A stretch of DNA of 64,000 nucleotides from a candidate division FCPU426 bacterium (GTDB lineage Bacteria > Oederibacteriota > Muellerivitia > Muellerivitales > Muellerivitaceae), in the NCBI GenBank assembly GCA_963771075.1, contig CAVYSE010000020.1:79651-143650 (forward strand), written 5' to 3'. The translations under genes were made by a program, and so were the position numbers. Below, in pieces: positions 43,481-63,208 of this stretch (positions are counted from its first letter, which is position 1; each line of letters starts with the position of its first letter). Below the pieces are notes generated by a model that saw nothing but the letters and a program-made list of their open reading frames with translations, did no database searches and was not told the DNA's origin.

Positions 43481-44518
43481 ATGGCCTCATCCTTCACCCT
43501 CCGTCAATTAGCCGCTGAAATTGGTGGCACCTTTACCGGGGACGGACATCTGGTTTTGACCGGACTGGCACCCCTGGATACGGCTGGGGAAAGTCAGCTG
43601 TCTTTTTTGACCAATCCCAAGTACGCCAAACTGGCCGAGACCTCACGGGCCTCGGCCATCCTGGCGGAAAAACCTCTGGAAGGACTTTCAAAGCCCTTCC
43701 TTCTATCGCCGAATCCATACGCAAAACTTCCCCGTCTTATCCAGCTTTTTTACCCATCCACCAAGCCTGAACCTGGCATCCAGGAGGGGGCTTGGGTTCA
43801 TCCCCAAGCGACGGTTGATCGATCCGCGACCCTTTATCCCGGAGTCGTGGTGGCTTCCGGGGCTAAAATCGGCCCCCGAACGGTTTTGTACCCGGGTGTT
43901 TTCCTGGGGCAGGACGCGGTCGTAGGCGAGGACTGCGTTCTTTATTCCAACGTCACCGTCCGAGACCGGTGTTTGTTGGGAAATCGGGTTATCCTTCAGC
44001 CGGGCGTGGTTGTTGGAGGGGATGGATTTGGGTTCGCCCCGGACAAAGGTACCTATGAGAAGATCCCCCAGGTGGGGAATGTGATATTGGAAGATGATGT
44101 GGAATTGGGCGCAAATACCTGCGTGGACCGTGCCGCCCTGGGTTCGACCCGAATTGGCAAGGGGACCAAATTAGATAACCTCATCCAGATCGGCCACAAC
44201 GTGGTGATCGGGGAAAATTCAATCATTGTCTCACAAACTGGAATTTCGGGGTCCACCCAAATTGGTAACCACGTCGTCATGGGTGGACAAGTCGGGCTCG
44301 CGGGCCATTTGAAGATTGGGGATCATGTGACCCTGGCGACCCGGACGGGGGTTATGGAGGATATTCCTGAAAAGGGGGTCTACTGGGGATCACCTTCCAG
44401 CCCCATGTCCGTCGAAATGAAAAACGTCGCCGCCTACCGTCAATTGCCGGACGTGATCAAGCGTCTCCGTCGGCTCGAGAAGGTTTTTGAGAAAATCGAA
44501 AAGGAAAACCAAGGTTGA
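43481..44518 (+). CDS. lpxD: UDP-3-O-acylglucosamine N-acyltransferase
   Basis: LSFL, NPY, GDGFGF, KIPQVG, DRA, KLDNLIQIGHN, hexapeptide repeats. Confidence 0.96.
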   Translation: MASSFTLRQLAAEIGGTFTGDGHLVLTGLAPLDTAGESQLSFLTNPKYAKLAETSRASAILAEKPLEGLSKPFLLSPNPYAKLPRLIQLFYPSTKPEPGIQEGAWVHPQATVDRSATLYPGVVVASGAKIGPRTVLYPGVFLGQDAVVGEDCVLYSNVTVRDRCLLGNRVILQPGVVVGGDGFGFAPDKGTYEKIPQVGNVILEDDVELGANTCVDRAALGSTRIGKGTKLDNLIQIGHNVVIGENSIIVSQTGISGSTQIGNHVVMGGQVGLAGHLKIGDHVTLATRTGVMEDIPEKGVYWGSPSSPMSVEMKNVAAYRQLPDVIKRLRRLEKVFEKIEKENQG

Positions 44519-45822
44519 GACTCCAGCGAACCCTGGCCCAACCCGCCCAATTTGAGGGGCGGGGCTTGCACACCGGCAAAACCGCCCATATCCGGGTTCT
44601 CCCCGCCGGGGTAGATCAGGGGGTATCTTTTTATCGAACCGATCTTCAGGCTTTGATCCCCCTTACCCCCTTGGGAGTGACCAATACTGCCCGTGGGACC
44701 ACCCTAAGCGGAGAAAAGGGCGCCTCGGTTCATACGGTTGAACATCTTCTTTCCGCGATCAAGGGGCTTTTTCTCGATAATTTAATTATTGAGATTGATT
44801 CGGAAGAGGTTCCGATCATGGATGGGAGCGCGGAACCCTTTTATAAGGGTTTGGAGGCCAGCGGGGTAGTGGATCAGTCCAAAAGCATCCATCCCATTCA
44901 AATACACGAAACTTTTGAAATGACATTCGGTGATATCTTTCTCAAGGCTGAGCCTTCGGAAAGTCTTGAGTTGAATTGCCATACGTCCTTCCCCTCGCCC
45001 GGCCTCGAAAATCAATATTTCCGGTTTACACTCGAAAATGGTTCCTTTGGGAACCAATTGGCGGGCGCCCGGACCTTTTGCTTTGAGCAGGAGGTGGAAG
45101 CCTTGCGCCGACAGGGCCTGATCAAAGGCGGGGACCTCCAATGCGCGGTTGTCATCGGGAAGGAGGGGGTATTGAATCCTCCCCTCCGCTATGAGGACGA
45201 AATTGTCCGCCACAAGACCTTGGACCTGCTTGGGGATCTCGCACTTTTAAACCGCCCCTTGTTGGCTAAGATCACGGTGAAAAAGGCCGGGCATCGGTAT
45301 CATGTGGAATTGGCGAAGGCGATTTTAGAGAAATTCGGCAATGGGAAGGAATCACCCGGCGCCACAAAGGGGGAAACCAAGATGATTGATATTTTGGGGA
45401 TTCAAAAGGCTTTGCCGCACCGTTATCCTTTTTTGCTGATTGATCGGGTTTTGGAACTCGATGAGAAAAAAGTGGTGGCGATTAAAAATGTGACGATTAA
45501 CGAGGGCTTTTTTCAAGGTCATTTTCCGGGGCATCCCATCATGCCGGGAGTTCTGGTGATCGAGGCGATGGCCCAGGCTGGTGGAATGATTTTTCTTCAT
45601 AACGGGGATGGCAAAAAACTGCTTTATCTGGCCGGGGTGGATAAAGCCAAATTCCGTAAACCCGTCTTTCCCGGGGATCAAATCCGTTTTGAGGTAGAGG
45701 TCCTGGTTTTGAAATCGAAAGTGGGGAAAATAGCGGGTAAAGCGATCATCGACGGAAAGGTAGCGGTACAGGCCGAACTGACCTGCGCCATCGTCGATCG
45801 AGACGAAATGGTTCAGGAATAA
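44515..45822 (+). CDS. lpxC-fabZ: Bifunctional LpxC deacetylase / FabZ dehydratase
   Basis: GLHTG, TVEHLLSA, PIMDGS, RHKTLDLLGDL; then LPHRYPFLLID, GHFP, MPGVLVIEAMAQ. Confidence 0.96.
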   Translation: MRLQRTLAQPAQFEGRGLHTGKTAHIRVLPAGVDQGVSFYRTDLQALIPLTPLGVTNTARGTTLSGEKGASVHTVEHLLSAIKGLFLDNLIIEIDSEEVPIMDGSAEPFYKGLEASGVVDQSKSIHPIQIHETFEMTFGDIFLKAEPSESLELNCHTSFPSPGLENQYFRFTLENGSFGNQLAGARTFCFEQEVEALRRQGLIKGGDLQCAVVIGKEGVLNPPLRYEDEIVRHKTLDLLGDLALLNRPLLAKITVKKAGHRYHVELAKAILEKFGNGKESPGATKGETKMIDILGIQKALPHRYPFLLIDRVLELDEKKVVAIKNVTINEGFFQGHFPGHPIMPGVLVIEAMAQAGGMIFLHNGDGKKLLYLAGVDKAKFRKPVFPGDQIRFEVEVLVLKSKVGKIAGKAIIDGKVAVQAELTCAIVDRDEMVQE

Positions 45823-47446: not shown

Positions 47447-48535
47447 TTAATTGTTTTTTCGCAAGATCAAAAGGGGCCCCATTAGGGCGAAAATCAAGTT
47501 GATGCTCCAAATGGCGAAAAAGGGCGGTATCGCTCCACCGTCTCCCAAGGTATGTCCGATTTGCATCCCGCCGATATAAGCTAACCCCACTAGAAGGCAA
47601 ATTCCGAAACTGGCCACCACTCCGCTGTATTTTCCCATGGACCAACCCCAGGGAACTCCCCATAGGGCGAGGATCACGCAGCCAAAGGGAAAGGCCAGTT
47701 TGTTATTAAGTTCCACCAATTCCTTGTGGCAATCCAAACCGTTCCTTTTCAATTGTTGGATATAAAGGGTCAGCTCGGCGATGGACAGCTCCGCAAGTTC
47801 TTTTTGCTCTTTGATGAAGTCAGAGGGTTTTTCCGTAAGGTCCACGACGGTCTGGTCGAACGGCAGGGTTTGAACCTCGTTATCATCTCCGTTGAATGTC
47901 CGGATATATCCGTTCTCGAAAATCCAACGCCCATCCTGGTAATGGGCAGCTTTGGCGTCCACCCTCGATTTCAAATGGGAGGCATTGTCAAATTGGAGTA
48001 CGAGGATATCCGTCATGGTGTTCTTGGTCCCGTCAAACGTGCCGATGTGGTAAAGGGTGTTGTTGTCCCCGCGCAGGGAAAGGTTCTGCCGGTACGTTTC
48101 AAGGGAGGATTCGGGTTTGTGCTCGATTTCGACTTCCTGGGTATGGCGCCTGATCTGATTGGCCTTGGGCACGACGATTTCGGAAAAAACCAGGCTCAAA
48201 ATACAAATCACGAGGCCCGCGAAAAACAGGGGAATGACAGCCTGGTAAATGTTGGCTCCCCCCGCCCGCATGGCCATCAGTTCGCTGTTTTTGGCCAAGG
48301 TGCTTAAGGCCATCAAGACCCCGAAAAGGACGGCGAGGGGAATAATCAGTTGAATCAATTCGGGGACTTGGGATATCAAGTATTTGAAGGTGAGCCAGAG
48401 CCCGGGATGATTATTGAGGATAAACTGGAGTTCCTCCAAAACCTTGACGATTAAAATAACCACCGTAAAGAACATTAACGCGAGGATAAATGGTTTGGTG
48501 AATTCACGCAGGATGTATCGGGTAAGGGTTTTCAC
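47447..48535 (-). CDS. lptG: LPS export permease LptG
   Basis: TLTRYILREF, NSELMAMRAGG, KLAFPF; GTG start overlaps the lptF stop. Confidence 0.88.
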   Translation of the reverse strand: MKTLTRYILREFTKPFILALMFFTVVILIVKVLEELQFILNNHPGLWLTFKYLISQVPELIQLIIPLAVLFGVLMALSTLAKNSELMAMRAGGANIYQAVIPLFFAGLVICILSLVFSEIVVPKANQIRRHTQEVEIEHKPESSLETYRQNLSLRGDNNTLYHIGTFDGTKNTMTDILVLQFDNASHLKSRVDAKAAHYQDGRWIFENGYIRTFNGDDNEVQTLPFDQTVVDLTEKPSDFIKEQKELAELSIAELTLYIQQLKRNGLDCHKELVELNNKLAFPFGCVILALWGVPWGWSMGKYSGVVASFGICLLVGLAYIGGMQIGHTLGDGGAIPPFFAIWSINLIFALMGPLLILRKNN

Positions 48536-49704
48536 GGCCTTGGTTTCTCTCTCTTGAAGGTATTGGATTTTAACCGTCCCCCCAGGGTTTTTTCCCCTCG
48601 AAAGGCCGATTGCTCTGAAATCACCAAATAATAAATAAGGCAGCCCGCGGCTGCCAATAGGATGTTGCCCCCCCAAACGCCCAGGGAAAGGTTCACCAGA
48701 TTTTTCTGAACGAGGATGTTTCCGAGGGTGAATAGGGAATAATAAAAGAAGATCATCACCAAGCCCAGGATGAAACCGATAAACCCCTTAGAGCGGACCC
48801 ACAAGCCGAGGGGGGCGCAAAACCAGGTCAGGGCCAGGCAAGCGAAGGGAAGGGCCAGACGTTGTTGGTATTCCATTTGCATTTGCTTCTTTAAGGCGGA
48901 GTCCGAACAGGAGGCGATCGCCTGGTCCAACTCGGCCAGGTCCAGGTCCTCGTATTCCTTCTTCACGTCCGACATCTGAGAAAGCTGGTTTTCCAAGTTC
49001 AAGCGGATCAGATAGCGGTTGAAATATAGCCGGTTATAGGTCTGGTAGTTGGTGTTATCCCAGGTCATCAAACCGTCATCCAGTTGGAAAAACACCTGGA
49101 GGTTCTTAGGGTTGGTGATCAAGCGACCGTGCTTGGCCAAGGTCGTTTGCACGGGCGCGTGGGGCGAGACGCGGTTGAACATGTGGACATTCGCAAATGT
49201 CCCGTCCGGAGCCAGCTGGTCAATGTAAAACTGGTAACCCTCGAATAGGTCGACGAAGACCTTCTCCCGTATGGCCATGTCGGCGCGGTTCTGAAGGATT
49301 TTAAAATGGATTTTTTTAAAGGTGTATTTCGCCGCCGGCACAACCCAGTTGTTAAACGAAATTAATAGGGCGGTCAGGAACGCCCCGACCACCAGGAGGG
49401 GCAGAATCAGGCGGAAAAGATGAACTCCCGCGCTCTTAAATGCGGTGACTTCCATGTCTGAACTCATGCGGCCGAACGCCAAGAGGGTCGCCATCATCAA
49501 CGACATGGGAATGGTGGTGGAAAGCACGAAGGGGATCAGGCTCAGGTAAAGCAAAAGGGCATCGCCCAGGGGAGCCTGCTTGTTGAGGACCAGGTCCAGG
49601 AGCATTAAAACCCGGTTGGTCATGAATAGAAGTGTTAAAACCGCTACGCTCAAGGCGAAAGAGGGAAGGGTTTCCATTAACACATAGCGGTAAACGGTCT
49701 TCAA
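48532..49704 (-). CDS. lptF: LPS export permease LptF
   Basis: YRYVLME, GRMSSDMEVTAFKSAG, RLALPFACL, PLG; TTG start after GAGAGG. Confidence 0.88.
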   Translation of the reverse strand: MKTVYRYVLMETLPSFALSVAVLTLLFMTNRVLMLLDLVLNKQAPLGDALLLYLSLIPFVLSTTIPMSLMMATLLAFGRMSSDMEVTAFKSAGVHLFRLILPLLVVGAFLTALLISFNNWVVPAAKYTFKKIHFKILQNRADMAIREKVFVDLFEGYQFYIDQLAPDGTFANVHMFNRVSPHAPVQTTLAKHGRLITNPKNLQVFFQLDDGLMTWDNTNYQTYNRLYFNRYLIRLNLENQLSQMSDVKKEYEDLDLAELDQAIASCSDSALKKQMQMEYQQRLALPFACLALTWFCAPLGLWVRSKGFIGFILGLVMIFFYYSLFTLGNILVQKNLVNLSLGVWGGNILLAAAGCLIYYLVISEQSAFRGEKTLGGRLKSNTFKREKPRP

Positions 49705-50044
49705 CAAGGCCTCTCGGGTTTGGACGTTGTTAATAAAACGATCAAAGGTTCGGATAACTGGCGGAGGCCCTCGCAAAAGGAACTCGCGGGGCAGTATATC
49801 ATGCGGGCCCGAAAGAGTGCCCGGATGAGAAGGAAGGCGTCCGTTCGGGGCGGCTATCCGACGAACGGGTGGAAGGCAGCGGTTCCGGCCTTGGGGAGGG
49901 GGTATCCTGATATCGGGGAATGTTCCGTTGAAAAAGCATTCGTCGGAGCCTTGAGGGGTTGTTATGATTTTAACCCGACGAGTTCGGATGGCGCCGTTTG
50001 AGAGACCCTTAACCGCTTTTGAAGACACAATGCCGGGAGAGAAT

Positions 50045-51194
50045 GTGAACCGAGCCTGGGACCGATTTTTTTCACTCGACTTTGAGGCCCGTTTTATCCG
50101 GTCCTCCTTGCGCCTGCTGGGGGTTTGGAACCCCCTGTGGACCCTTCTCGCCAGCCTATTCTGGGGTGAATGGGATACGGCCTCCCTGCCGTTTCGTTGG
50201 GCCTGGGGCTTAATGGAAGCGACCATTGCCTCCCTGGTGGCACTCCTGGTCATGGTTCTCTTTCGGTGGGCCGATCAAAGAGGCTGGTGGAAAAGGATTC
50301 CCTTCCTAGGGAGACCGGGCGGTGGAAAGTACCTGGTCCTCATGGCGGTGCTGGTGCCGCCTGGGATCGTCCTGTCTCTCCATGGGATGGTGGGGTTCAT
50401 TAACTTGGTTTTCCCAGGCGACCCAATGACCGCCCAATTCCATTGGGATTATTACGGGAAAGGCGTCTTTGGAGGTTGGCTTCTCCTGCTTGAGTTTTTT
50501 ATTTTCAAGTCCTGGCAGGATACCCGGGACGAGGTCAGGCTAAGCCAGATCAAAGCCAGGGAACTGGAAAAGGAAAGGCTTCAGGCGCTTTTAAACCAGC
50601 TCAAGGACCAAATGAACCCGCATTTCCTGTTTAACACGCTCAATACGGTGGCGGCCCTCATCCCGGAAAACCCATCCAAGGCGGAGCAGGTGGTGGTAAA
50701 ACTTTCCGCCCTTTTGCAGGGAATATTGGCTTCCACCCGGCGGACCCATCATGCGCTCGCCAAAGAAATTGAGTTTTGCGCGGATTACCTGGAGATCGAG
50801 CAAGTCCGTTTCGGCTCGCGCTTGAATTGGCACTCGACCCTGGACCCTGCGCTTGATTTGCAGAAGGTGGAGATTCCCGTACTTTTGCTTCAGCCCATCG
50901 TTGAAAACGCGGTTAAGCACGGACTTTCCTCTCTTTCCTCGGGGGGAACAGTTTGGATCCATGCCCGCCGGAGGGAAGAATGGGTCGAGTTGGTGGTGGA
51001 GGACGACGGGGTTGGTTTTGGGAAATCCCCCTATGCGGGCTCCGGGACGGCCCTGGCCAATTGCCGTAAACGTCTCGAGCTTGCCTATGACGCCCAGGGC
51101 GGGCTGGAGATATTAGGAAAGACAGGGGGGCGGAACCCAAATCATCATGAGGTTTCCCGCGGTTAGCGCGGGGAAATCAGGAGGAGAAACATGA
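50045..51194 (+). CDS. LytS/YehU-type sensor histidine kinase; start uncertain, frameshift near the 3' end
   Basis: Four TMs; QMNPHFLFNTLN, YLEIEQVRF, LQPIVENAVKHG, VEDDGVG; the shifted frame gives GGTQIIMRFP ending in ATGA at 51191-51194. Confidence 0.88.
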
Positions 51195-51940
51195 TCCGCG
51201 TTCTTTTGGTGGACGATGAGACGCCGGCCCGGGGAAGGCTCGCGAGGCTTTTAAGCGAAATCAAGGATATCCAGATCGTTGGAGAAGCCGCCAACGGTTT
51301 GGAAGCCCTATCGGCGGCCCAGGAATTTAAGCCCGATCTGGCTTTTTTGGACATCGAGATGCCTGAACTCAACGGGCTGGAGGTGGCCGAGGCTTGGGCC
51401 GATAACGGACCCGCGGTTGTTTTTGTGACCGCCTATACCGAGCACGCGCTCCGGGCTTTTGAGGTTTCCGCCCTGGATTACCTGGTCAAACCGGTCTCGG
51501 CGGATCGGTTGAGCGAGGCCTTGGACAAGGTCCGCCGTCATAAACCCCAACCCGGGCTGGAACAATTCCAATCCTTCCTGGAAAAGTTCCAGGAAAAAAG
51601 GGCCAAGCGGCGCATGGCCGTGAAGTGCGGGTCCCGGTACCGGGTGTTGGACCCCGAAAGGGTCACCGCGATCGTGGCGAAGGATCACTATGCCTCCATA
51701 CTCGTGGAGGGACAGGAGATCCTTTGTGACGACAGCCTGGATCACCTGGCTCAAAGGCTGGACCCAGGCCGGTTTTTGCGCATCCACCGGGGCGCCGTCA
51801 TCAACTTGGACTTCCTCAAGGAACTGGAGCACCAGGGAGACCGGAAGTACCTGGCGGTCCTTTCGGATGTGGCGAAAACGAAACTTCTGGTCAGCCGCGA
51901 AAGACTGGATGAATTGAAGGAAAGGTTGGGTCTTGGCTAA
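51191..51940 (+). CDS. LytTR-family response regulator
   Basis: VDDE, FLDIEMP, FVTAY, DYLVKP, FLRIHRG, VSR. Confidence 0.95.
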   Translation: MIRVLLVDDETPARGRLARLLSEIKDIQIVGEAANGLEALSAAQEFKPDLAFLDIEMPELNGLEVAEAWADNGPAVVFVTAYTEHALRAFEVSALDYLVKPVSADRLSEALDKVRRHKPQPGLEQFQSFLEKFQEKRAKRRMAVKCGSRYRVLDPERVTAIVAKDHYASILVEGQEILCDDSLDHLAQRLDPGRFLRIHRGAVINLDFLKELEHQGDRKYLAVLSDVAKTKLLVSRERLDELKERLGLG

Positions 51941-54900
51941 GACGGGTTCTTTTCATGCAGGTTCTTCGAAGGTTTGGGCCCTGGCCCTGTTTTGTACAGC
52001 GGCCCCGCTTCTGTTTGCCCAGACACCTACGGCGACAGCAATTCCCGACCTAAAGGGCTTAAGCCCGGGGGAGGAACAGCAGATCCTTCGGGCGATCGAT
52101 TCGCAAAATAATTCATCCACTCCGACAACCCTCGACCTTTCCGGTTCCGGTTCGGTTTCCTCCGCTATGACCCCGGCCCAAACTCAAACGACGCCCCAAT
52201 CCTCTCCGGGCCCGGTGACCACCGCGGACCTTTCGTCAGGGGAACCCCAGCCCCCGACGGGACTTACCATCCTGGTGTTGAAGGAAGGGGTTTATCTTTC
52301 CTGGGACGCGGGCTCCTCCACCGCGGCGACGACTTACAACGTTTATCGGTCCACCATGCCGGGTTCGGATTACAAACAAATTAACCTGAAATCGTTGACC
52401 GCGCCCTATTTCCTGGATGGCGTGCCATCCAGTATTTCACCTCCGAAAAACGGGGAAAATTACTTTTATGTGGTTACCGCGGTCGATACTCAAGGCCGTT
52501 TAAGCGACTATTCGGATGAGGTCGCCGTGACACCCAAAGATATGGAAATCCCTGAAACGGAGAAACAAGGCAAAAAAGGTGTCCTGACCGTCCCCGGGAC
52601 TGAACAGGAGGAGGAACTCAAGATCCCGGAGCAAAAGATCATCAGCCTTCAGCTCCCCGCGGATACCCAGCTTTCGATCCAGGGATATAAAAAAATCGAG
52701 GCGGATTTTTCCTTCCAGAAATTCAACCGCCCGGACCAGAATGGCATTCCATCCGAGGTGGATAGCACTACGGTGAACCAGGAAATGGTCGTGAACCTGG
52801 AGGGAAAGGTCGGCAAGAACGTGGACGTGCACGTCGATTACAGCGACGTCAACCGGGCGGGCGGGGTGGACCAAAGCAAGCAGGAAATATCCATTGTCTA
52901 CCACGGCGACAGCAACAGCCCGGTCCAGGAAGTTGCGTTCGGAGATTTGCAAATGAACCTGCCCAACACCGAATTCGCCGGGTTCAGCAAACAGCTTTTC
53001 GGCCTCCAGGCCAAATTGAAATTCGACGATTTCCGGGTGACAGCCTTTTTCGCCCAGACCAAGGGCATTTCCGAGACAAGGGTTTTTAACGGGAACACGG
53101 GCCAAGTGGATAAGGTTTACAACGACACCGATTACATACGGGAAAGATATTTTCTAATCACGAAGGAATATATCGCGAGTACCAGCGGGGTCTCCCAGAA
53201 CATGGCGCTCCCCCAGGCCAACGCCGAACAAATTTGGGTCAATTCGGGAACCGGCACCTCGACTTTGGCCACAGGGACGAATTTTATCGGGGCTTACGAG
53301 CACTGGCTTCCGGGGCGGGATTACACCCTCGATTACAACACGGGGATCATCACTTTTATCCGATCGGTGCCCATGAGCGCCCAAATTGTGGTCGGCTTTA
53401 CCAATAAGTTGGGCGCGAACCGGGGTTTGTTCGTCGTAGCCGGGGGCACCAGCCCCTCGGCGATCGGGAATGTATTGGGGTTCGGCAATTCGTCCGCGAT
53501 CGCCAACTTCCAGGTCCCGCCGGACGGGGTGATCTATACCGGAGTCAATCCAGCCAACTTGAACAATATTCTCATCAAAAACAACAATAACACGACCAGC
53601 GCCCTCTACCTGGTGGATTATTTTGACCTGGGCAGGGACAAGATCATCCCGCCCCAGCAGGACCCCAATTTCGTTTTCCAGGTCATCGACCAGGGAACGA
53701 ACGACGTTTTGCAGACCGGCCAAGGCGGTTTGGGCCAAAACTCGCAACCCTGGTCTTATGTCATGAACCAAGACTTCAATTATCTGGTGGTCACCAACAC
53801 TAACAACACCAATGTCACGGTATCGGCGGGGGTCACGACTAATTTCTCGGAAAGGGCCTTTGTGGATCCCAATGTGGACCCCTCTTTGGGGGCGGGCACT
53901 AACGGGATCTACAACGAGGCCACCGTGCCCACCAGCCTCAAACGGATACACCTGGTCTATAAAACCCAGTTAAATTATTTTCAACTCAATCGATTCAACA
54001 TCATCCGCGGTTCCGACACGGTCTTTTTGGACGGACGCAGGCTGCGCCGGGACGTGGACTACACCCTTGACTACACATCGGGGTTCCTGGACTTTCCGGA
54101 TAAAAGTATCCTCCGCCCTGACAGCCAACTGGTCATTTCATATGAATACGCGCCCTTTGGTTCCTTCAGTCAAAATAATATCCTGGGCGGTCGAATGGAA
54201 TATGACGTGACGGATCATTTTTTTATCGGCTCGACCATACTCAACTCAACCAGCCAACAGCCCCAGGATATGCCCCAGATTGGTTCCACCCCCAATTCCT
54301 TGACGGTGTTGGACGCGGACATGAAATATGATCTGGGTCCGGATGACCTGCAGGGTTTAACGGGCCTCCTCCCGGGCCTTGGGGATTGGAAACCGCCCGC
54401 AACCCTTAAACTTTCGGGTGAGGTTGCCCAGAGTTATTTCAATCCGGACACCTACAGCATGGAAGGCGAAAATGGGGTAGCCATGGTGGATAACATGGAG
54501 GGCATCGATAGCGTGACCGGCCCCACCATGAACGCCACGAACTGGATCGTTTCATCCGCGCCCGAGCAGATAAACTCCCCGGTCGTTCCCGGATACCTTT
54601 CAAGCCTCGTTTGCGACAGTAGTTCCACGAATGCCACCAATAACCGGCTTCGGTTCCGGAATGGGCCCCTTGAATTTACAACTCTTGGGGCTTCGGTGAC
54701 GGCCGGACAAATGGCTGTGAACGGCCAGGGGGGACATATTTACGCGGGTGTATTGAACAATCCCGGGACGGGCGTTGCCACGGACTCTATATCTGTCTTG
54801 CAGATCCCCTACGCGAACTTGACCAACCAAAACTGGGCTGGCCTTCGGCAAACCTTGTCCGCCACCGGATTGGACCTATCCAGCACTGTCTATATGCAGG

Positions 54901-57883
54901 CTTGGGTTTATAACGATGGTAATCCGAAGTGGATTATGTTTGATTTTGGCGTTATGAGTGAGGCCATCAACGTGGATCAGGGGCCAACCATCGAGGCGGA
55001 ACAGCTTCCCCTTATCCCGCAGGATGATATCGGGTTACTGACAAATTATTTCAATTCTTTGACGGGCCCCGGCGGGCCAGTTTCCCAAGTGGGGGGGGAG
55101 GAATATCCATTACAGATGAATCCCAGGGAACCCAGGAAGGACAGGGCAATAACATTCTCGATACTGAAGATACAAACGGCAACGGGGTATTGGATACGAC
55201 GGACGCTTATTACGAATATGGGGTCCAGGCCGCCTGGACCGGATGGCAAATCGTTAAGATTCCAGTGAATTTCTCACAATCGGATGGACTGTATCAAACT
55301 GATCAAGGGGTCAATTACTTTTTCCATAACCAAAACCCCAGTTTGGCGACCCCCACCCTTATCCGCACGATCCGGTTTTGGATGACCGGCGTCTCCGCGA
55401 CTTCCGCCGTCAGCGGATATGTTTTGTTTGAAAGCATCCAGTTCAACCATAACCTCTGGCAGTTGGAGGTCGATCCCACCGCCAACGCTTCTGAAGGGGT
55501 GACCATCAACACCGAAAAATTCGACTGCAGTTCCATCAGCCAGGACCAGGACCCGGGATATCTTCCCACTACCCGTTTTATCGTGATCCCGCCCGGAACC
55601 AGCAGTTCCTCGATCCTGGCGAAAGAAAAATCGCTTAAAATTACTTATGATCTGTCCGACAGCGACACCGTAACCTATACGGCTCCACCCTCCGCGGCCC
55701 CCGTTACTTTTCCTAACTATTACGCTACCCGCTTTTTCAACCAGGGAATCGATTTTACTGATTATTCGAATCTCGCGTTCGATCTTTATGTGCGAACTAA
55801 CAGTATCGAACCGGGTGAAGTCCTATTCATCAGAATCGGAAATGACCAACAGGACTATTACCAGTACAACATTCAGATGAGCAACCAATTTTATGGAAAT
55901 TGGAATACCATCACGGTCCCGATCGACGGTTCGGACGGCAACCGGGATACGGTCGGAACCCCCTTCATCAACCGGGCCACCCAAGTTAGTTTCGGGGTTT
56001 TGTCGCCGAACCATGAGAATGGCCTGACAAAGGAACTTTGGATCAATAACTTGCGGGTAAATACGCCCAACCAACGCACCGGGCTGGCCCGGCGGGCGAA
56101 CGCGACGCTCGTATTGGGCAACAATTTCGCCACGGTGAACGCCCGATATCGGGAGGTGGACTCGGGGTTCACACAGATCGACCAAACTGACAACCATTTC
56201 CAGCATTCCACTCAATATGGTCTGGACTATACTTCCAATGGGGTCAAGTTGTTTGACCAGCCCCTCGTGACCCAATTTTCCTACACGAACCAGAATCTCT
56301 ATACCGAGACCGCCCTACTCCAAAACCCCTATTACAGCGCCCTCCCTAACGCCCAATCGGAAAACACTACCGGCAGTATTTCCTACACCAAAGACCTGGG
56401 GCCGGCCTGGGGCCGTTTAACGAATTTTCGCCTGTCTGAAAGTACCTATGATGAGGCAGACGTCTATCAGCAAGCCTATTTGAATCAACCGGGTATCCAA
56501 GGGAATACCCAGAAAGGCAACCAGACCTATACGGTTGCTTCCACCTATGACGCCCCCGGCAAGGTCATAGGCTTTCCCGTGGGCACCAACCAGTTTTCCG
56601 AGACCTATATTCTTTCCTACGACACCCAGGTCTTCACTACTGACCCGAACCTTTCGAATTATAACCGTACCACCGAGAACGAAACCTACGGGTGGACCAA
56701 TACAACGGAGGTTTTCAAAAACCTGGTCTTTACCCCGGGCTATACCCTGAACCTGGTGGACGCCATGGGAAACACCAATTCACCGGGGGTTGCCGGTGGC
56801 GTGAACCAATTCATCAATTTCCAGGAAAGGGACCAGCCCAAGGCGGGGTTGACCTATCGGGGGGTTCCCGGGGCTATCCCGGCGGTGAACTATACCGGTT
56901 CCCAGCAAGTGGACAACGTCACCTATCCGGAAGGCCCCCGGCTGAACACCTCCAATAGCCTCAACTATTCCCTCAATTTGTCGCCATCCCTTTGGTGGGA
57001 TCCCTTTAAAACCATCGCTTTGACGGCCTTCGCGGGCCGAACGGAAAACGCCTCATCGGCTATACCGAATTTCAGGGCCCTGCCTGCCGAGCCGACTTTC
57101 GACCAGGTATGGGGAATGGACCCGGATAACGCCTATGCCTTGAACTCGACCCAGTCCCTGACCGATCAGATCAATTTCAGCTTCAGGCTATTTGATTTTT
57201 GGGATTTCAAGCCGACTGGTTCCTGGACCACGCAGGGAAACCTATTATCGCCTGGCACCAACCCCGTGACCCAGCAAAGCGACACCTTGGGTTTCACGAC
57301 CGTTTATAACCGCAAATTACTGGTCATACCCTTCATCAACGTTGGTTTTGACTCGGCCCAGTTCCAGTACACCCGGACCGATTCCACCCAATGGGATAGT
57401 TCCTCTCCCCCGGTCATCTCTGGCCAAAGCGCCAATGAAACCTATTCATTCACGGTGCCTTATGATATCGCCAAACAATCCCAAGGGAATGTCAGGTATC
57501 AACGTACGGATGGTTTCACCAACACCAACGGGATCATCACCAACCAGACCGATGACCAGTATTCCATCCAATACAACCAGAAATTCCTTGAAAATGAGAT
57601 TTTGCACATTCCCTTCACCCATTGGAAAATCAAGTTCGACCAGGCGATCGAGCTTCAGGCGAATTTCCTGGCGGAGTTCGTAAATAACCTCAGCCCGAAC
57701 TACAGCCTTAATAACCTTCAGACTGAAAAATACCGCGGCACACTACAGCTCAATTACAATGCCATGAAAAACCTGAGGATCGGGTTGGGGGTGGTAAACG
57801 AGTACTTTGTTGAGGACAATCCTTACCCCTACCTGGGTTACGATATGTGGCAGATCAATATCTCCGGCGAAGCGAGGTTTTAG
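51933..57883 (+). CDS. sprA: SprA/Sov-like large outer-membrane protein (about 1980 aa), one frameshift near 55091-55098
   Basis: Signal peptide; NLEGKVG, KQLFGLQAKLKF, DYTLDYTSG, GEVAQS, MVDNMEG, DTEDTNGNGVLD, LWINNLR; C-terminal Phe. Confidence 0.72.
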
Positions 57884-57885
57884 TG

Positions 57886-60800
57886 ATGCTTTCGACTGGG
57901 AAAAAGGGCCTTACTTTTAACCACCCGCGGTTGATCCGAAATCAACTTGTCCTAACGGTATTCCTTTGTTTCCTGTCGATGACCCGGGGAGCGGGCGCTC
58001 AAACACCAACCCCAACCCCGCTTCCGTCTCCTTCGGCCTTCACCGCGGCATCGGGGAATGGGGTGGTGACCTTGGGGTGGAACCCGCTTTCGGGCGCATC
58101 TGATTTTTTCATCTACAGGGCCGAATCAGGGGCTTACTATTCATCCATAACCCCCGTTCCCGTAGCGACCGTCATGGCTTCCGCCAGCCCGTTGACCTAC
58201 ATTGATGGACAGGTCGCGAATGGCGATTCTTATGTTTATACGGTCATGGGGCAGGATTCCTCTGGAAACCTTGGCTCCCCCGCGACCGTAGCGGCTAACC
58301 CCTACGCGCCTCCCCAAGCGATCCAAACCTTGACGGTTCATTCCTTGCACGCCGGAGCCCTGGACCTCTCTTGGCAAGTTCCCCTTTCTTCCTATCCGGT
58401 TACCGGGTATCAGGTCTACCGCTTGGGGGTTACCACCACACCCACTCCTCTGGGGACACCACCGAACGCCTCGCCGACCCCGACCTTTAACACGGGGCCT
58501 ATTCCGGCTTCAACTGTGATCGCGGCGGGTGCTCCTATTACGCAAGTCTCCTTAACATCCTATTCGGATCAACCGCAAACTTTGGCTAATGAGTATTTTT
58601 ATTATGTAGTATTAGGAATGGATTCGAATGGCGTCACTGGATTCACGCCCGCTAATTCAAGTGTGGCCGGATACCCGCAATCCAATAAACCTTACGCCCC
58701 GATATTGTCCGCTGAATTGGCGGCCACTTTGACTCCCGTCCCCGCGAGCGGCGGTTATGGCGTCATGCTCCAATGGACGGGTTCCTTGGATTCCGAGGGG
58801 GTAACGGCTTACCAGGTTTTTTCGAACGGCGCCACATTAGCAACTATCCTTGTGACCCAGACCCCCGTCCCAATCGCGACCTATCAAGACCAGACAATTT
58901 CTTATTCCGCCAATAGTCCGGCGACTTATTCGGTCATGGCTATCAATGGAAACGGAATCAGTTCCATCCTTTCGAACTCGGTTGCCGAAACAATTACCCA
59001 ACCATCCATCAATGGGGTTGTTTCGGCCATTCCCATACCCACCAATGAATCAGTTTCCATTAGCTGGAGCCAGGGAATTACGGGAACCTACGGCATCGCG
59101 GGATATCAAATATTCAAAAGTACTTATCCCAATCCATTGGCAACCACAGGGACCCCAGTTGCTACTCCCACTCCTTTCGCAACGATCATCGTCACCCCTT
59201 TTGGAACACCGACTTTGGTTTGCATAGATTCCGCTGTCACGGACGCAAGTGGCCTAACCTATTGGGTCCAACCCTATGCGGCTGTTACGGCGGGGGGAAT
59301 AGCCACCACGCCAACCTACTTGGATCTGGGCCCGACTCCAGTGGCAACCGTGGCGGTGGCCACAGCCCCGGGAAATAACGCCTTTCAATTGGCTTGGACG
59401 AGCGGTTCTACAGGATTTTATGGAACACCTGTGGCTTATCAAATCTACCGCGAGTACTCCACCACCACTACCCCCACCCTTACACCCGTCGCCACGGTTC
59501 CATTTGGACAGATCAACTATACCGATTACGCGAGCGGAGTGACCGCGAATACGTATTTTAGTTATCAAATTTCCGTCCTGGATTCTTTGCAAAATCAATC
59601 CGACCTATCTCCCTCTTCGAATAGCGTTTATATCAATTCCAGTTCGCCATTAAGCCCTCCCTTGGCCCCGGTGGCGCTTCCGGTCGTGGGAGGACCGAAT
59701 ACTTTGGTTTTTCCATGGCTGTTGAACCCGACCACGGACGCAGTCACCGTTTACAATGTCTATGGTTTCGATTATCCAACGAACCCAAGCGTCACGCCCC
59801 TCAGTACTTATGTGCCCCCTGTGACTTCACCAACCATGACACCCGTTTTTGTATCGCCCGCCACCCCTTGGGTCGTGAATAATTATTACTTAACGGCCCA
59901 GGGCCCGTCGGGTTCCAGCCTGCCCACAACCCTATCTTGCCTCGGCGCTTCGGCTATTACCTTATCGGCGGCCATACCTCCCACTACCCAGGCAGTTTCC
60001 CTCTCTTGGAATGTGAACGTTCCGACGACCACTCCGCCTCCATTGGATAGTTTTGATGTTTATCGTTCCGTTATCCAGGGAAGTCAATTTACCCCAATTG
60101 CCACCGTCCTTTACCCAACCATGGTTTATACGGATACGACCGCTTCGGCGGGACAATCTTTCTATTATCGCGTCACGGCCCGGTCCAATGGGGTGGAGAG
60201 TTCGCTGCACCCTTATCCCCGGATCACGCCAAGTTCGGAAACGGGGATATTCACTTGGCCCACGGCTCCCGTCAGTTTGACGGCCAGTGGCGCGGTTTCT
60301 TTCACCACATTGAGTTGGTCGGCTAATCCCGGCTCCGACGGCGTCAGTTATTATATGATCCTTCAAAACGGCACTCCGGTTGCCACGGTTATCCCAACCC
60401 CCAATGCCACGATCATTGCCGCGACGATCCAGGATACGCCGGGGGTGGAAACGGGATATCAGGTGGCAGCCCAAAACAACCAGGGAAGCAACGCCTCATC
60501 TGTTTCGGTATTGCTTTCTTATAACGCCGTTCCAACCCTAAGCCTGGGACCCCCAACTTGGGTGAGTCCAACGCCTAATGCCACCCCCGCCTATCCCGCG
60601 GGCGTTTGGATTTCAGGGTTCTCTTTCAACAGCACTCCAACCCCGGGAACAGGGGTGAATAGCTATTCCATTTTCCGCTCGATAGTGGCAACCCCCATAT
60701 CCATGTGCGTCACATGTTGGACCCTGATTGGTACCGTTACGGCGCCGACTTCCTTGACGACCGCTACTCCAGTTGTATTCTTTGATTCGGCCGTCCCGAA

Positions 60801-62466
60801 TGGTGGCCCGGTAAGCGGCTATGTGAACTATTACCAAATAGTTCCTCAGAACGGTTCGATATCTGGCAACCCCAACCCGCCCGGGGCCATTCCGGTAACC
60901 TTCTGGCCGGCCGCACCGGCAAGCCTCGTTTCTCGGGTGTCGGCGACCGGCACTACCATCAACTTGGCTTGGTCCCAGGCGGGCAACGCGCCGGTGACGG
61001 GTTATGATGTTTATCGAAGTACCTATGCTTTCTCCCCAACCACCTATTTATCCAGCACATCGGGTTCAGTCACGACCTTCTCCGATAATGGTCCGCTCAC
61101 CTATGGGGTTGCCTATTATTATTGGGTTGATGCAGGAGCCCAGGGAGTGACCAGCGCCCCGGCAAGCATGGGAGCTTTGGCGGTCGCCGCACCGACGCTG
61201 ATCCTTACCCCCGGCCCTGCGGTCAATAACTTGTACTGGAATCCTGTGGCAGTGCCGACGGGGAGTCCCGTTACGGGTTATTCCGTCGAAAGTATGACCC
61301 TACCCTCCATCCCCATCCCTCCCCTGACCCCCACCCCGGGATTTGTGGCCATTGGGCCTTCCATTATCGAGGGCCTGAATAACACCCAATACGCTGACAA
61401 TAGCGTTCAGGACTCGAATTCTTATGTGTATCAGGTCGCGGCCGCGGCCAATAATCCGTGGGGTGGAAGCCCCCTTCTCGGCGCGTTTTCAAATCGAGTG
61501 GGGGTAGGCGTTACAGTTGTCCCACAGCCCGTTAGCAATTTGCAGGCGGTTTCGGGGGACGGATTGGTCCAACTTCGCTGGAATTATCAGGGGACACAAA
61601 AATTCACTTACATTCTTCAACGGAAATTGGGTTCGGCACCCGTGTCGGAGTACCAAACCATCAAATCGTCTTTCCAAGGGGTGAATTACACCGACACGGG
61701 GGTTCTGGACAAAACACTTTACAACTATCAGGTGATCAGCGTTGACTCGGGCGGATTGACGTCCATACCGGCAGTGGTTTCTGCGCTGCCTGCGGCTCCA
61801 CCTATCGTTGTAAGCCCGCAGGTATCCCTTCTTCAAAACCAGGCAGGAAATCAGTTAACCTGGGCGCCGGCCAATTATCCCACCAACAATTATGATCCAA
61901 CCCGTATGTATCCTTTGGGCGGATACTATGTCAACCGTTCCACGGATGGAGGAGGAACCTATCAATTGGTGGCGGTTGTTTCCAGTTCCCAAGGTGTGAC
62001 CAATAATATCTCTTATACCGATCCGGTGACCCTGGTGAATGGGTCCACTAACACCTATCTCATTGAGGCTTTTGACTCCCCCGCGGGCGCCTCGGTCAGC
62101 AACGTTAGCATGGTCCATGAAACTCCCTACAATCCCATAACCGCTTACCCCTTGAGCGCCGGAGCTGCTTTGGATTGCAATGCCATTCGGCCTAATGGAC
62201 CTACACCTGTACTTCATGTTCGATTCGTGGTCACGAACCCCGGCAAGGTGGAAATTAAGGTTTACACCTTGACGGGTACCTACATCAAAACAATATTTGA
62301 GAATGACAATGTACCCATCGGGGTTTGGGGCTTGCCCGGCAATCAGTATCCCGTCTTTTGGGACGCTCGCAATATGGGTGGTGCTCTGGTGGCATCGGGT
62401 GTTTATCTGGTGACCGTGGAAATGAACGGGCACCAGGAAATCGACAAGGTGGCTGTTATCAAGTAA
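57886..62466 (+). CDS. Large exported FN3-repeat, Thr/Pro-rich protein with FlgD-Ig/T9SS-like C-terminal domain
   Basis: Signal peptide; roughly a dozen LxW..Y.VYR..Y.V.A repeats; ends IKVYTLTG..WDARNMGG..VASGVYLV..KVAVIK. Confidence 0.85.
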   Translation: MLSTGKKGLTFNHPRLIRNQLVLTVFLCFLSMTRGAGAQTPTPTPLPSPSAFTAASGNGVVTLGWNPLSGASDFFIYRAESGAYYSSITPVPVATVMASASPLTYIDGQVANGDSYVYTVMGQDSSGNLGSPATVAANPYAPPQAIQTLTVHSLHAGALDLSWQVPLSSYPVTGYQVYRLGVTTTPTPLGTPPNASPTPTFNTGPIPASTVIAAGAPITQVSLTSYSDQPQTLANEYFYYVVLGMDSNGVTGFTPANSSVAGYPQSNKPYAPILSAELAATLTPVPASGGYGVMLQWTGSLDSEGVTAYQVFSNGATLATILVTQTPVPIATYQDQTISYSANSPATYSVMAINGNGISSILSNSVAETITQPSINGVVSAIPIPTNESVSISWSQGITGTYGIAGYQIFKSTYPNPLATTGTPVATPTPFATIIVTPFGTPTLVCIDSAVTDASGLTYWVQPYAAVTAGGIATTPTYLDLGPTPVATVAVATAPGNNAFQLAWTSGSTGFYGTPVAYQIYREYSTTTTPTLTPVATVPFGQINYTDYASGVTANTYFSYQISVLDSLQNQSDLSPSSNSVYINSSSPLSPPLAPVALPVVGGPNTLVFPWLLNPTTDAVTVYNVYGFDYPTNPSVTPLSTYVPPVTSPTMTPVFVSPATPWVVNNYYLTAQGPSGSSLPTTLSCLGASAITLSAAIPPTTQAVSLSWNVNVPTTTPPPLDSFDVYRSVIQGSQFTPIATVLYPTMVYTDTTASAGQSFYYRVTARSNGVESSLHPYPRITPSSETGIFTWPTAPVSLTASGAVSFTTLSWSANPGSDGVSYYMILQNGTPVATVIPTPNATIIAATIQDTPGVETGYQVAAQNNQGSNASSVSVLLSYNAVPTLSLGPPTWVSPTPNATPAYPAGVWISGFSFNSTPTPGTGVNSYSIFRSIVATPISMCVTCWTLIGTVTAPTSLTTATPVVFFDSAVPNGGPVSGYVNYYQIVPQNGSISGNPNPPGAIPVTFWPAAPASLVSRVSATGTTINLAWSQAGNAPVTGYDVYRSTYAFSPTTYLSSTSGSVTTFSDNGPLTYGVAYYYWVDAGAQGVTSAPASMGALAVAAPTLILTPGPAVNNLYWNPVAVPTGSPVTGYSVESMTLPSIPIPPLTPTPGFVAIGPSIIEGLNNTQYADNSVQDSNSYVYQVAAAANNPWGGSPLLGAFSNRVGVGVTVVPQPVSNLQAVSGDGLVQLRWNYQGTQKFTYILQRKLGSAPVSEYQTIKSSFQGVNYTDTGVLDKTLYNYQVISVDSGGLTSIPAVVSALPAAPPIVVSPQVSLLQNQAGNQLTWAPANYPTNNYDPTRMYPLGGYYVNRSTDGGGTYQLVAVVSSSQGVTNNISYTDPVTLVNGSTNTYLIEAFDSPAGASVSNVSMVHETPYNPITAYPLSAGAALDCNAIRPNGPTPVLHVRFVVTNPGKVEIKVYTLTGTYIKTIFENDNVPIGVWGLPGNQYPVFWDARNMGGALVASGVYLVTVEMNGHQEIDKVAVIK

Positions 62467-62500: not shown

Positions 62501-63208
62501 GTGGCCACTCCGCTTTGGAACAAAAAATTAAAATGTCCTTTTTGCGTTTTTGAGTTCGAGACGACCCGGCTTCGTTCCTCTGTCATCAAGATCAAGGACA
62601 AACAGACCGATTTTGGAAGTATATATGAAGGAGAGTGCCCCTATTTATACGCCGTTACAGTTTGTCCCCAATGCACTTTTGCGGCCCTGAATAAGGATTT
62701 CGATTCGATACGCGCTGGCGCGGAGCCCATGATCATGGAAGTCAGCAGGCAAATCCGCCAATCGGCCAAGAAAAAACCAAATATTTTCGATCTCGGGATC
62801 TCGACTCCGGAAGTGGCGATCAAACGGCATGAATTGGCCATTACCTTCATGAAAATCAGGAAATATGGGGACCTGGGTATACTGGCGGGGCTTTACCTGC
62901 ATTTGGTATGGATCTATCGCTTAATGCAGGATTACGAAAACGAGAAAAAAGCCATGGCCCAAGCGGCAAAGGCCTATGAAGAGTTTTTTGACAAGGGAAA
63001 CCGGCTTCCGGAGAACCTGGGAGAACCGGGTGTCCTTTATTTGATCGGCGAACTCAACCGGCGGCAAGGCTTATATAAAGACGCCAGGCGTTTTTACGAA
63101 CGCGCCTTGGCCAGCAAGGAAATCCGGGCTTTTCCCCGTATCGCCGAGATGACGCGTGACATGATGTATGCCGCTAAGCAGCAGATGGAAATGAATGGAA
63201 TCGAATAG
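62501..63208 (+). CDS. DUF2225-family protein (Zn-binding CxxC pairs plus TPR)
   Basis: CPFC, TDF, VCPQC, LYLHLVWIYR, LYLIGELNRRQG. Confidence 0.85.
   Translation: MATPLWNKKLKCPFCVFEFETTRLRSSVIKIKDKQTDFGSIYEGECPYLYAVTVCPQCTFAALNKDFDSIRAGAEPMIMEVSRQIRQSAKKKPNIFDLGISTPEVAIKRHELAITFMKIRKYGDLGILAGLYLHLVWIYRLMQDYENEKKAMAQAAKAYEEFFDKGNRLPENLGEPGVLYLIGELNRRQGLYKDARRFYERALASKEIRAFPRIAEMTRDMMYAAKQQMEMNGIE

Follow-up and report, generated by a model that had tools for sequence, protein, structure and literature searches.

A SprA-family translocon with a fibronectin type III head outside Bacteroidota, and a likely type IX-like export route with no recognizable motor

The DNA analyzed here is a stretch of 64,000 nucleotides (the window) from contig CAVYSE010000020.1 of a candidate division FCPU426 bacterium (assembly GCA_963771075.1), and the gene in question lies at positions 51933 to 57883 of its + strand. 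By sequence and by fold, the encoded protein belongs to the family of SprA, the giant outer membrane barrel in type IX secretion systems (T9SS), with a different head that includes a fibronectin type III (FN3) domain. Since a relative of SprA, cargo proteins, and carriers are all present but no recognizable motor is, surface proteins are likely exported by a simpler, undescribed route. That this is a T9SS-type exporter is very probable, and the best reading of how it may operate is a T9SS-type pore whose cargo is likely kept on private, nonrecycled carriers; to motor-free release with private carriers as a whole, we assign a probability of about 0.5. The system works like a T9SS, but we found no recognizable motor, hub, or sortase, and it is therefore not a canonical T9SS.

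The sprA gene and its predicted barrel

The region consists of two overlapping open reading frames (ORFs) on the + strand, 51933 to 55268 (1111 aa) and 55190 to 57883 (897 aa), which are the halves of a single sprA-like gene of ~1,980 aa (N-half and C-half). Against the profile TIGR04189, the N-half has an E value of 1.7e-49 and 168 bits (cut-off, 200), an intact homolog from the same genus, P0001, passes with 238 bits, and another homolog, P0034, reaches 252. The profile is borderline phylum-wide, with the cut-off exceeded in only 7/99 phylum genomes in a genome search (counts out of 99 refer to all species genomes of the host phylum and counts out of 60 to those of good quality). SprA of Flavobacterium johnsoniae (6H3I/6H3J) matches the N-half with an E value of 2.4e-15 in two colinear blocks, query residues 273 to 421 corresponding to SprA 161 to 305 and residues 680 to 877 to SprA 687 to 882. 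The C-half has no sequence match in Pfam, NCBIfam, or the PDB. By Foldseek, the top four hits are SprA entries for both the C-half (best E value, 1.4e-20) and the N-half (best E value, 3.3e-25), with low template modeling scores to SprA (TMq of 0.36 and 0.18), as expected for half-barrels. A profile of 39 intact homologs is colinear with SprA of Parabacteroides distasonis (E value of 3e-83 over SprA 166 to 1632, weak beyond), and the gene is single copy, as no second SprA paralog was found in the genome. No RNA data set was listed for the gene, a result that has no bearing on its expression. An internal SprA segment resembles the phage tail-tube profile NF052337 (in P0034, P0068, and L091, with E values down to 3e-8), a likeness that is common to Bacteroidota SprA.

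In the AlphaFold2 model built from a 40-row alignment, the C-half (55091 to 57883, + strand) has a mean predicted local distance difference test (pLDDT) score of 85.7, and it contains the DTEDxNGNG acidic motif, putative beta-sandwich caps, and ~25 consecutive long amphipathic strands that run up to a terminal Phe, a residue invariant in 40/40 alignment rows. The N-half model, also from a 40-row alignment, has a mean pLDDT of 69.6 and shows a disordered linker, a confident FN3 domain, and ~11 long barrel strands, the translocon part proper (52650 to 55090, + strand), with its predicted cap and lumen domains, being supported by TIGR04189, 6H3I, Foldseek, and the strand list. This makes ~36 to 37 long strands (11 plus 25 to 26, hand-picked from the DSSP lists of the separately folded halves), a count that fits the 36 of the SprA barrel (PMC10994853). 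VIA-align places residues 88 to 930 of the C-half model on residues 1233 to 2401 of 6H3I, with a Z score of 16.0, a root mean square deviation (rmsd) of 14.3, and 715 residues aligned. An earlier note, made from the sequence alone, had described SprA-type blocks in the expected order and a terminal beta-signal Phe, and both descriptions hold up, the first against the family profile and F. johnsoniae SprA and the second in the alignment.

The head begins with a predicted Sec signal peptide at residues 1 to 29 (51933 to 52019, + strand), read by eye, with a TTG start, an AGGA box upstream, and LLFA before Q. It is followed by a disordered linker rich in T, S, P, and Q (52020 to 52250, + strand; pLDDT of <50 over model residues 1 to 73), in which T, S, and P make up 26 to 49% in 32 close homologs, and then by the FN3 domain at residues ~107 to 201 (52251 to 52535, + strand), recognized by phmmer (3MPC, E value of 0.0097), modeled with a pLDDT of ~90, and matched again to 3MPC by Foldseek (TMt of 0.77). 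The same note had already read a T/S/P linker and an added FN3 domain here, as the models now bear out. Among 147 full-length homologs, 91 have no N-terminal FN3, 39 have a single copy, 16 have three copies, and 1 has two; P. distasonis SprA also lacks the domain. A fast tree of 60 rows, built from the barrel part only and with P. distasonis as its root, groups all 26 rows that have FN3 in a single clade (support of 90, not starred), with a single change of state; this clade is nested in a 34-row clade (support of 100) that contains all 19 phylum loci on the tree. Positions of TIGR04189 before ~90 are unmatched in the host family, where matches mostly start near position 95. Since the FN3 domain lies ahead of the first barrel strand, at the place of the periplasmic N terminus of F. 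johnsoniae SprA, which folds inside SkpA (PMC10994853), we infer that the head is periplasmic and probably takes the place of the SkpA-binding segment.

The frame changes at a run of eight G residues (G8) at 55091 to 55098 on the + strand. The second frame, which is open from 55028 onward, encodes the LDTEDxNGNG block at the same position as in the intact P0001, and the 37 full-length homologs found in a search with the C-half are single chains of 1767 to 2161 aa, so that two separate genes can be ruled out. A 276-base contig from an independent sequencing run, X2, spans 54923 to 55197 and has one extra G at the run (G9); none of the contigs of runs X1, X3, and X4 bridges the site. Two genomes of the same genus (G002 and G003) have intact frames of 1973 and 1974 aa. 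With G9 in X2 and intact frames in the genus relatives, the most likely source of the break is an error in the assembly. We consider it very unlikely that the gene is truly broken in this strain or that the poly-G run serves as a phase-variable off switch. X2 differs at further positions and may come from another strain, which together with the lack of a bridging contig in the other runs would leave room for a real lesion, but the frame is open in both relatives and in all 37 homologs, the genome still keeps 117 cargo genes, and the aligned site of P0001 has no G-rich codon run beyond GGSG. Other genes of the assembly are split into several ORFs as well, among them a flagellar hook-like gene (C7:47052-49176) and a cargo gene (C7:51111-53065), which also weighs against a real lesion and suggests more indel errors in this assembly.

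Host phylum, cargo, carriers, and the search for a motor

The host phylum is not Bacteroidota, in agreement with the non-Bacteroidota host suspected in the earlier note; it has only 99 species genomes, from 23 families, and "Ca. Firestonebacteria" belongs to it. A SprA homolog listed at NCBI under "Ca. Firestonebacteria" (P0064) is 69% identical over its whole length to SprA of a phylum genome (G027), and an Elusimicrobia homolog (P0068) is more distant. A Bacteroidota host was ruled out, as the phylum has only 99 genomes and the nearest named L2 matches lie elsewhere; among the best 120 listed, these have 67 to 68% identity and belong to Desulfuromonas, Thermodesulfobacteria, and Tectomicrobia. 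PMC7031533 places Goldbacteria/FCPU426 beside Firestonebacteria and Elusimicrobia. SprA is present in 92/99 phylum genomes and in 58/60 of the good ones.

Cargo is abundant. In this genome, which is 96.7% complete, the type A T9SS sorting domain profile TIGR04183 has 61 matches, 60 of them C-terminal, and a profile of the genome's own C-terminal domain (CTD) finds 117 ORFs, in every one of them at the C terminus (117/117). CTD tags occur in 60/60 phylum genomes, with 8 to 80 cargo genes detected per genome. The genome also codes for 23 PorV-like barrels, of which 14 lie directly behind a CTD gene, compared with 97 of 2233 background ORFs (the paralogs are not independent). Such barrels are found in 60/60 phylum genomes, and a CTD gene lies upstream of the carrier in 26 of 30 loci from 30 genomes. 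The earlier note had reported no gldKLMN or porV gene in the window; none was found in the 14 flanking ORFs scanned, but PorV-family genes are present elsewhere in the genome. Its idea of a minimal system is not supported for cargo and carriers: with 117 CTD proteins and 23 barrels of the PorV type, the system may be motor-less, but it is not minimal.

Of 12 carriers scanned, 11 pass the PorV/PorQ family profile NF033709 and none reaches the cut-off of the PorV equivalog NF033710. Their tails contain TPR (5), OmpA (2), FN3 (2), or nothing (4), so that 8 have a periplasmic TPR, OmpA, or FN3 tail. A twin-Cys tail is absent from 23/23 PorV-like barrels; in F. johnsoniae, SprF is joined to the GldK track via twin cysteines (PMC12635249). 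A complex between one carrier and the CTD encoded by the gene upstream of it was predicted with a score of 0.92, against 0.06 for the best control, with a run agreement of 96% and a partner pLDDT of at least 86; the mark used was reached by 116/157 solved and 2/215 mismatched pairs. As the PorV-CTD complex is already solved (8GL6), this prediction indicates likeness to PorV-CTD and is not proof of binding.

Some further observations concern these genes. Two PorV-family barrels are fused to a FlgD-Ig/CTD-like domain and an OmpA peptidoglycan-binding domain (C7:185937-187709 and C14:38566-40593) and could be tethered to the cell wall. Short proteins that look anti-sigma-like by eye and have a CTD-like end precede cargo-carrier pairs at C11:322807-323529, C21:69607-70359, and C3:366545-367354, two of them behind ECF-sigma-like genes. 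Two CTD proteins in opposite orientation, with frames of 1494 codons and the same C terminus (C17:145834-146082 and C17:158818-159066), may be an inverted duplication.

The partners expected of a canonical T9SS were sought in this genome and across the phylum, and no recognizable GldKLMN chain was found, in line with what the earlier note had read from the window. GldM has no match in this genome and 0/99 in the phylum genomes, with strong divergence possible and no positive control; GldL has 0/60 matches over the cut-off and one weak match, and GldN 0/60, both likewise with no positive control. For GldK, searched in this genome only and again with no positive control, one FGE-family protein scores 84 bits against a cut-off of 350. 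Two candidates were rejected: this GldK candidate (C11:287371-288573) is a generic formylglycine-enzyme-family protein that better matches SenA and EgtB and lies in an unrelated neighborhood, and a GldL candidate (C7:67231-68523) has an E value of 0.2 and is chemoreceptor-like by eye. PorP/SprF (TIGR03519) was not found in this genome. The PorU-type peptidase C25 was found in 0/17 genomes of the host family by a search that is positive in 8/60 phylum genomes. The GWxTD domain (PF20094), which we take to mark the Plug protein, was found in 0/60 phylum genomes, with no control genome over the cut-off. For SprE/PorW, one TPR protein scores 117 bits (cut-off, 250), with no genome-wide search made, and is a better match to CpoB.

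Proposed export route and its alternatives

In our model, cargo would cross the inner membrane by Sec and fold, then enter the pore from the periplasm, and its CTD would dock on a carrier's loops at the lateral gate. In F. johnsoniae, cargo is loaded on PorV inside the pore at no energy cost, and it takes the motor to remove the loaded carrier (PMC10994853). Here, the loaded carrier would leave the gate with no recycling. The cell wall or partner proteins would then capture those carriers that have a periplasmic OmpA, TPR, or FN3 tail, which could make the step one-way without a rotary motor. The cargo would remain displayed on its carrier through an uncleaved CTD, because the family has no PorU-type sortase and many cargo genes are cotranscribed with their own carrier. 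The FN3 head might serve, tethered in the periplasm, as a module for docking or gating in place of the SkpA, SprE, and Plug fittings, which is the weakest step of the model. Export may be energized differently, as had been suggested from the window.

Several points weigh against this picture. In F. johnsoniae, cargo stays trapped on the translocon once the motor is removed (PMC10994853), and release without a motor would therefore call for a changed gate. ExbD is present in 60/60 genomes, which makes a proton-driven motor available. No control genome exceeded the cut-off in the Gld searches, and a published homology survey misses PorN in Cytophagia (PMC7323717), so that diverged motor parts can be overlooked. 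For the C-half, VIA-align puts MtrB (Z score of 17.7) above SprA, and the barrel was folded as halves only (TMq values as above; rmsd of 14 to 26 A), so that a closed 36-strand barrel is putative. SprA lacks FN3 in 5/20 phylum loci, and FN3 is therefore not essential to the system. Last, some of the FadL-type barrels may have other jobs, as BamG does (PMC12611786).

The main alternative keeps the same route but lets a Ton/Tol-type motor, ExbB-ExbD with a TonB/TolA-like arm, pull loaded carriers off by their TPR, OmpA, or FN3 tails, as release needs energy in F. johnsoniae (PMC10994853). Four ExbBD-TonB operons are present in the genome, along with flagellar MotAB, and the best candidate (C6:127651-135704) codes for an OmpA/Pal-like lipoprotein, the 1010-aa, CpoB-like TPR protein with 117 bits to PorW/SprE, an outer membrane barrel of ~600 aa with no Pfam or NCBIfam match, ExbB, ExbD, and a TonB-like protein. 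The barrel is found in 57/60 genomes, and in at least 46 of these 57, exbD lies downstream of it at a distance of up to 2.5 kb; the Atlas clusters closest to the barrel occur most often in Rhodothermota, Spirochaetota, and Bacteroidota. As both systems occur almost throughout the phylum, however, their co-occurrence is uninformative. With 297 bits, CpoB/YbgF is by far the better match for the TPR protein, and the first gene of the operon codes for the Pal-like lipoprotein, so that a role in the envelope like that of Tol-Pal is a simpler explanation. In this genome, no exbB, exbD, or tonB was identified beside a PorV-like gene, none was identified among the sprA neighbors in 20 loci (31 of the neighbor proteins scanned), and no alternative motor genetically linked to sprA was found in these 20 loci, which come from 14 families. 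We regard a Ton/Tol-type motor as unlikely, if worth keeping in mind.

It is also quite improbable that a canonical-style rotary motor and track are present and have diverged past profiles trained on Bacteroidota. The SprA proteins here score only 135 to 252 bits, versus 3177 for P. distasonis, and their partners could be as diverged, all the more as the Gld searches had no positive control. The SprA, PorV, and CTD profiles of the same libraries nevertheless detect homologs in 58 to 60 of 60 genomes, the only GldK-like match is the lone FGE-family protein rejected above, and the carriers lack twin-Cys tails. A third possibility is that the barrel descends from SprA but has a nonexport job, such as envelope biogenesis alongside LptFG. 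An lptF/lptG pair (47447 to 50253, - strand; PF03739) lies upstream of sprA and divergent from it, as in 12/20 loci, and the window also contains a skp-lpxD-lpxC/fabZ-lpxA cluster. We see the lptFG pair as conserved context and not as a pore component, and a nonexport role is highly improbable given the universal CTD cargo and PorV-like carriers and the CTD protein that lies directly downstream of sprA in 13/20 loci.

The motor-free, private-carrier reading can be compared with three known systems. The protein resembles SprA of F. johnsoniae (6H3I, 6H3J, 8GL6, and 8GL8) and Sov of Porphyromonas gingivalis (TIGR04189) in its colinear blocks, top fold match, ~36 predicted strands, terminal Phe, and single copy, and it likewise occurs together with type A CTD cargo and barrels of the PorV family. 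It differs in its length (~1,980 versus 2,403 aa for SprA), in the linker and FN3 domain that stand in place of the SkpA-binding segment, in a genome with no GldL, GldM, GldN, PorP, or PorU match, and in a host outside Bacteroidota. A second likeness is to a class of Bacteroidetes named "Incertae sedis," presumably relatives of Rhodothermus and Salinibacter. In its partial T9SS, Sov and PorV are present and PorK, PorL, PorM, and PorN were not found (PMC7323717), but that class lies within the Fibrobacteres-Chlorobi-Bacteroidetes (FCB) group and retains PorU, PorQ, and PorZ, whereas our host family has no C25/PorU and has many private carriers and the FN3 head. Motor-less sets are thus partly in print already, for one fringe class (PMC7323717). 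The third is the type B cargo of F. johnsoniae with its cognate PorP/SprF shuttles, in which the carrier gene also lies directly downstream of the cargo gene and the cargo is likely anchored on the carrier, with cell wall anchoring proposed via PorE (PMC12618676). Our tags are instead type A-like (TIGR04183), the carriers belong to the PorV/PorQ family (NF033709), and the OmpA, TPR, and FN3 modules are fused to the carrier.

Two published accounts confine the T9SS to the FCB superphylum or to Bacteroidetes (PMC11205867; 10.1101/031039). In the SprA and T9SS literature on Elusimicrobia, FCPU426, Goldbacteria, Firestonebacteria, Gemmatimonadetes, and other candidate phyla, with subscription journals mostly outside the search and supplements excluded, we found no paper describing SprA in this phylum, and a term search of the accessible parts of PMC8542988, PMC12204202, PMC13755416, and PMC5445135 did not bring it up either. 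The structural model of the T9SS regards motor-driven release as the essential energy step (PMC10994853), and a non-FCB phylum that has pore, carriers, and 8 to 80 detected cargo genes per genome but in which no motor is detected would imply another source of energy or no source at all. The case bears on T9SS evolution and on the design of a minimal surface display system, and the route may be the one by which relatives, such as the cellulolytic Goldbacteria (PMC7031533), display enzymes. A more far-reaching scheme, which we hold to be tentative and rather doubtful, would extend a motor-free T9SS to the whole phylum, with SprA as a passive gate, cargo handed once to a cotranscribed PorV-like anchor, and an FN3 domain fused to the pore in place of Skp, SprE, and Plug; the motor and sortase of Bacteroidota would then be later additions that made the carriers recyclable. 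If true, this stripped system would be the natural case in which to ask whether energy is needed for T9SS transport in the first place.

Genes around sprA

Directly downstream of sprA lies a gene for a T/P-rich FN3-repeat protein (57847 to 62466, + strand), with a likely ATG start at 57886, 2 bases past the sprA stop. It ends in a type A T9SS sorting domain (~62200 to 62451; TIGR04183, 26.1 bits, over the cut-off) and is a candidate dedicated cargo or partner of the pore. The 13/20 loci with a CTD protein at this position come from other genomes of the phylum, and all 13 are among the 15 loci with an FN3-bearing SprA, compared with 0/5 of those without FN3, although the loci belong to one clade and are not independent. 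Upstream, a LytS-type kinase and a LytTR regulator (49964 to 51940, + strand; Pfam His_kinase, Response_reg, and LytTR) overlap the start of sprA; among the 20 loci, this pair is upstream of sprA in 3 of the 4 from family f1, a family-level, variable context.

The lpxC and fabZ genes of the envelope cluster are fused at 44515 to 45822 of the window, and LpxC-FabZ fusions are typical of Bacteroidota and relatives. Between the downstream cargo gene and a comF-like gene lies a DUF2225/TPR gene (62501 to 63208), whose cluster occurs in 2/26 sprA loci, and comF is found downstream of sprA in 14 of these 26.

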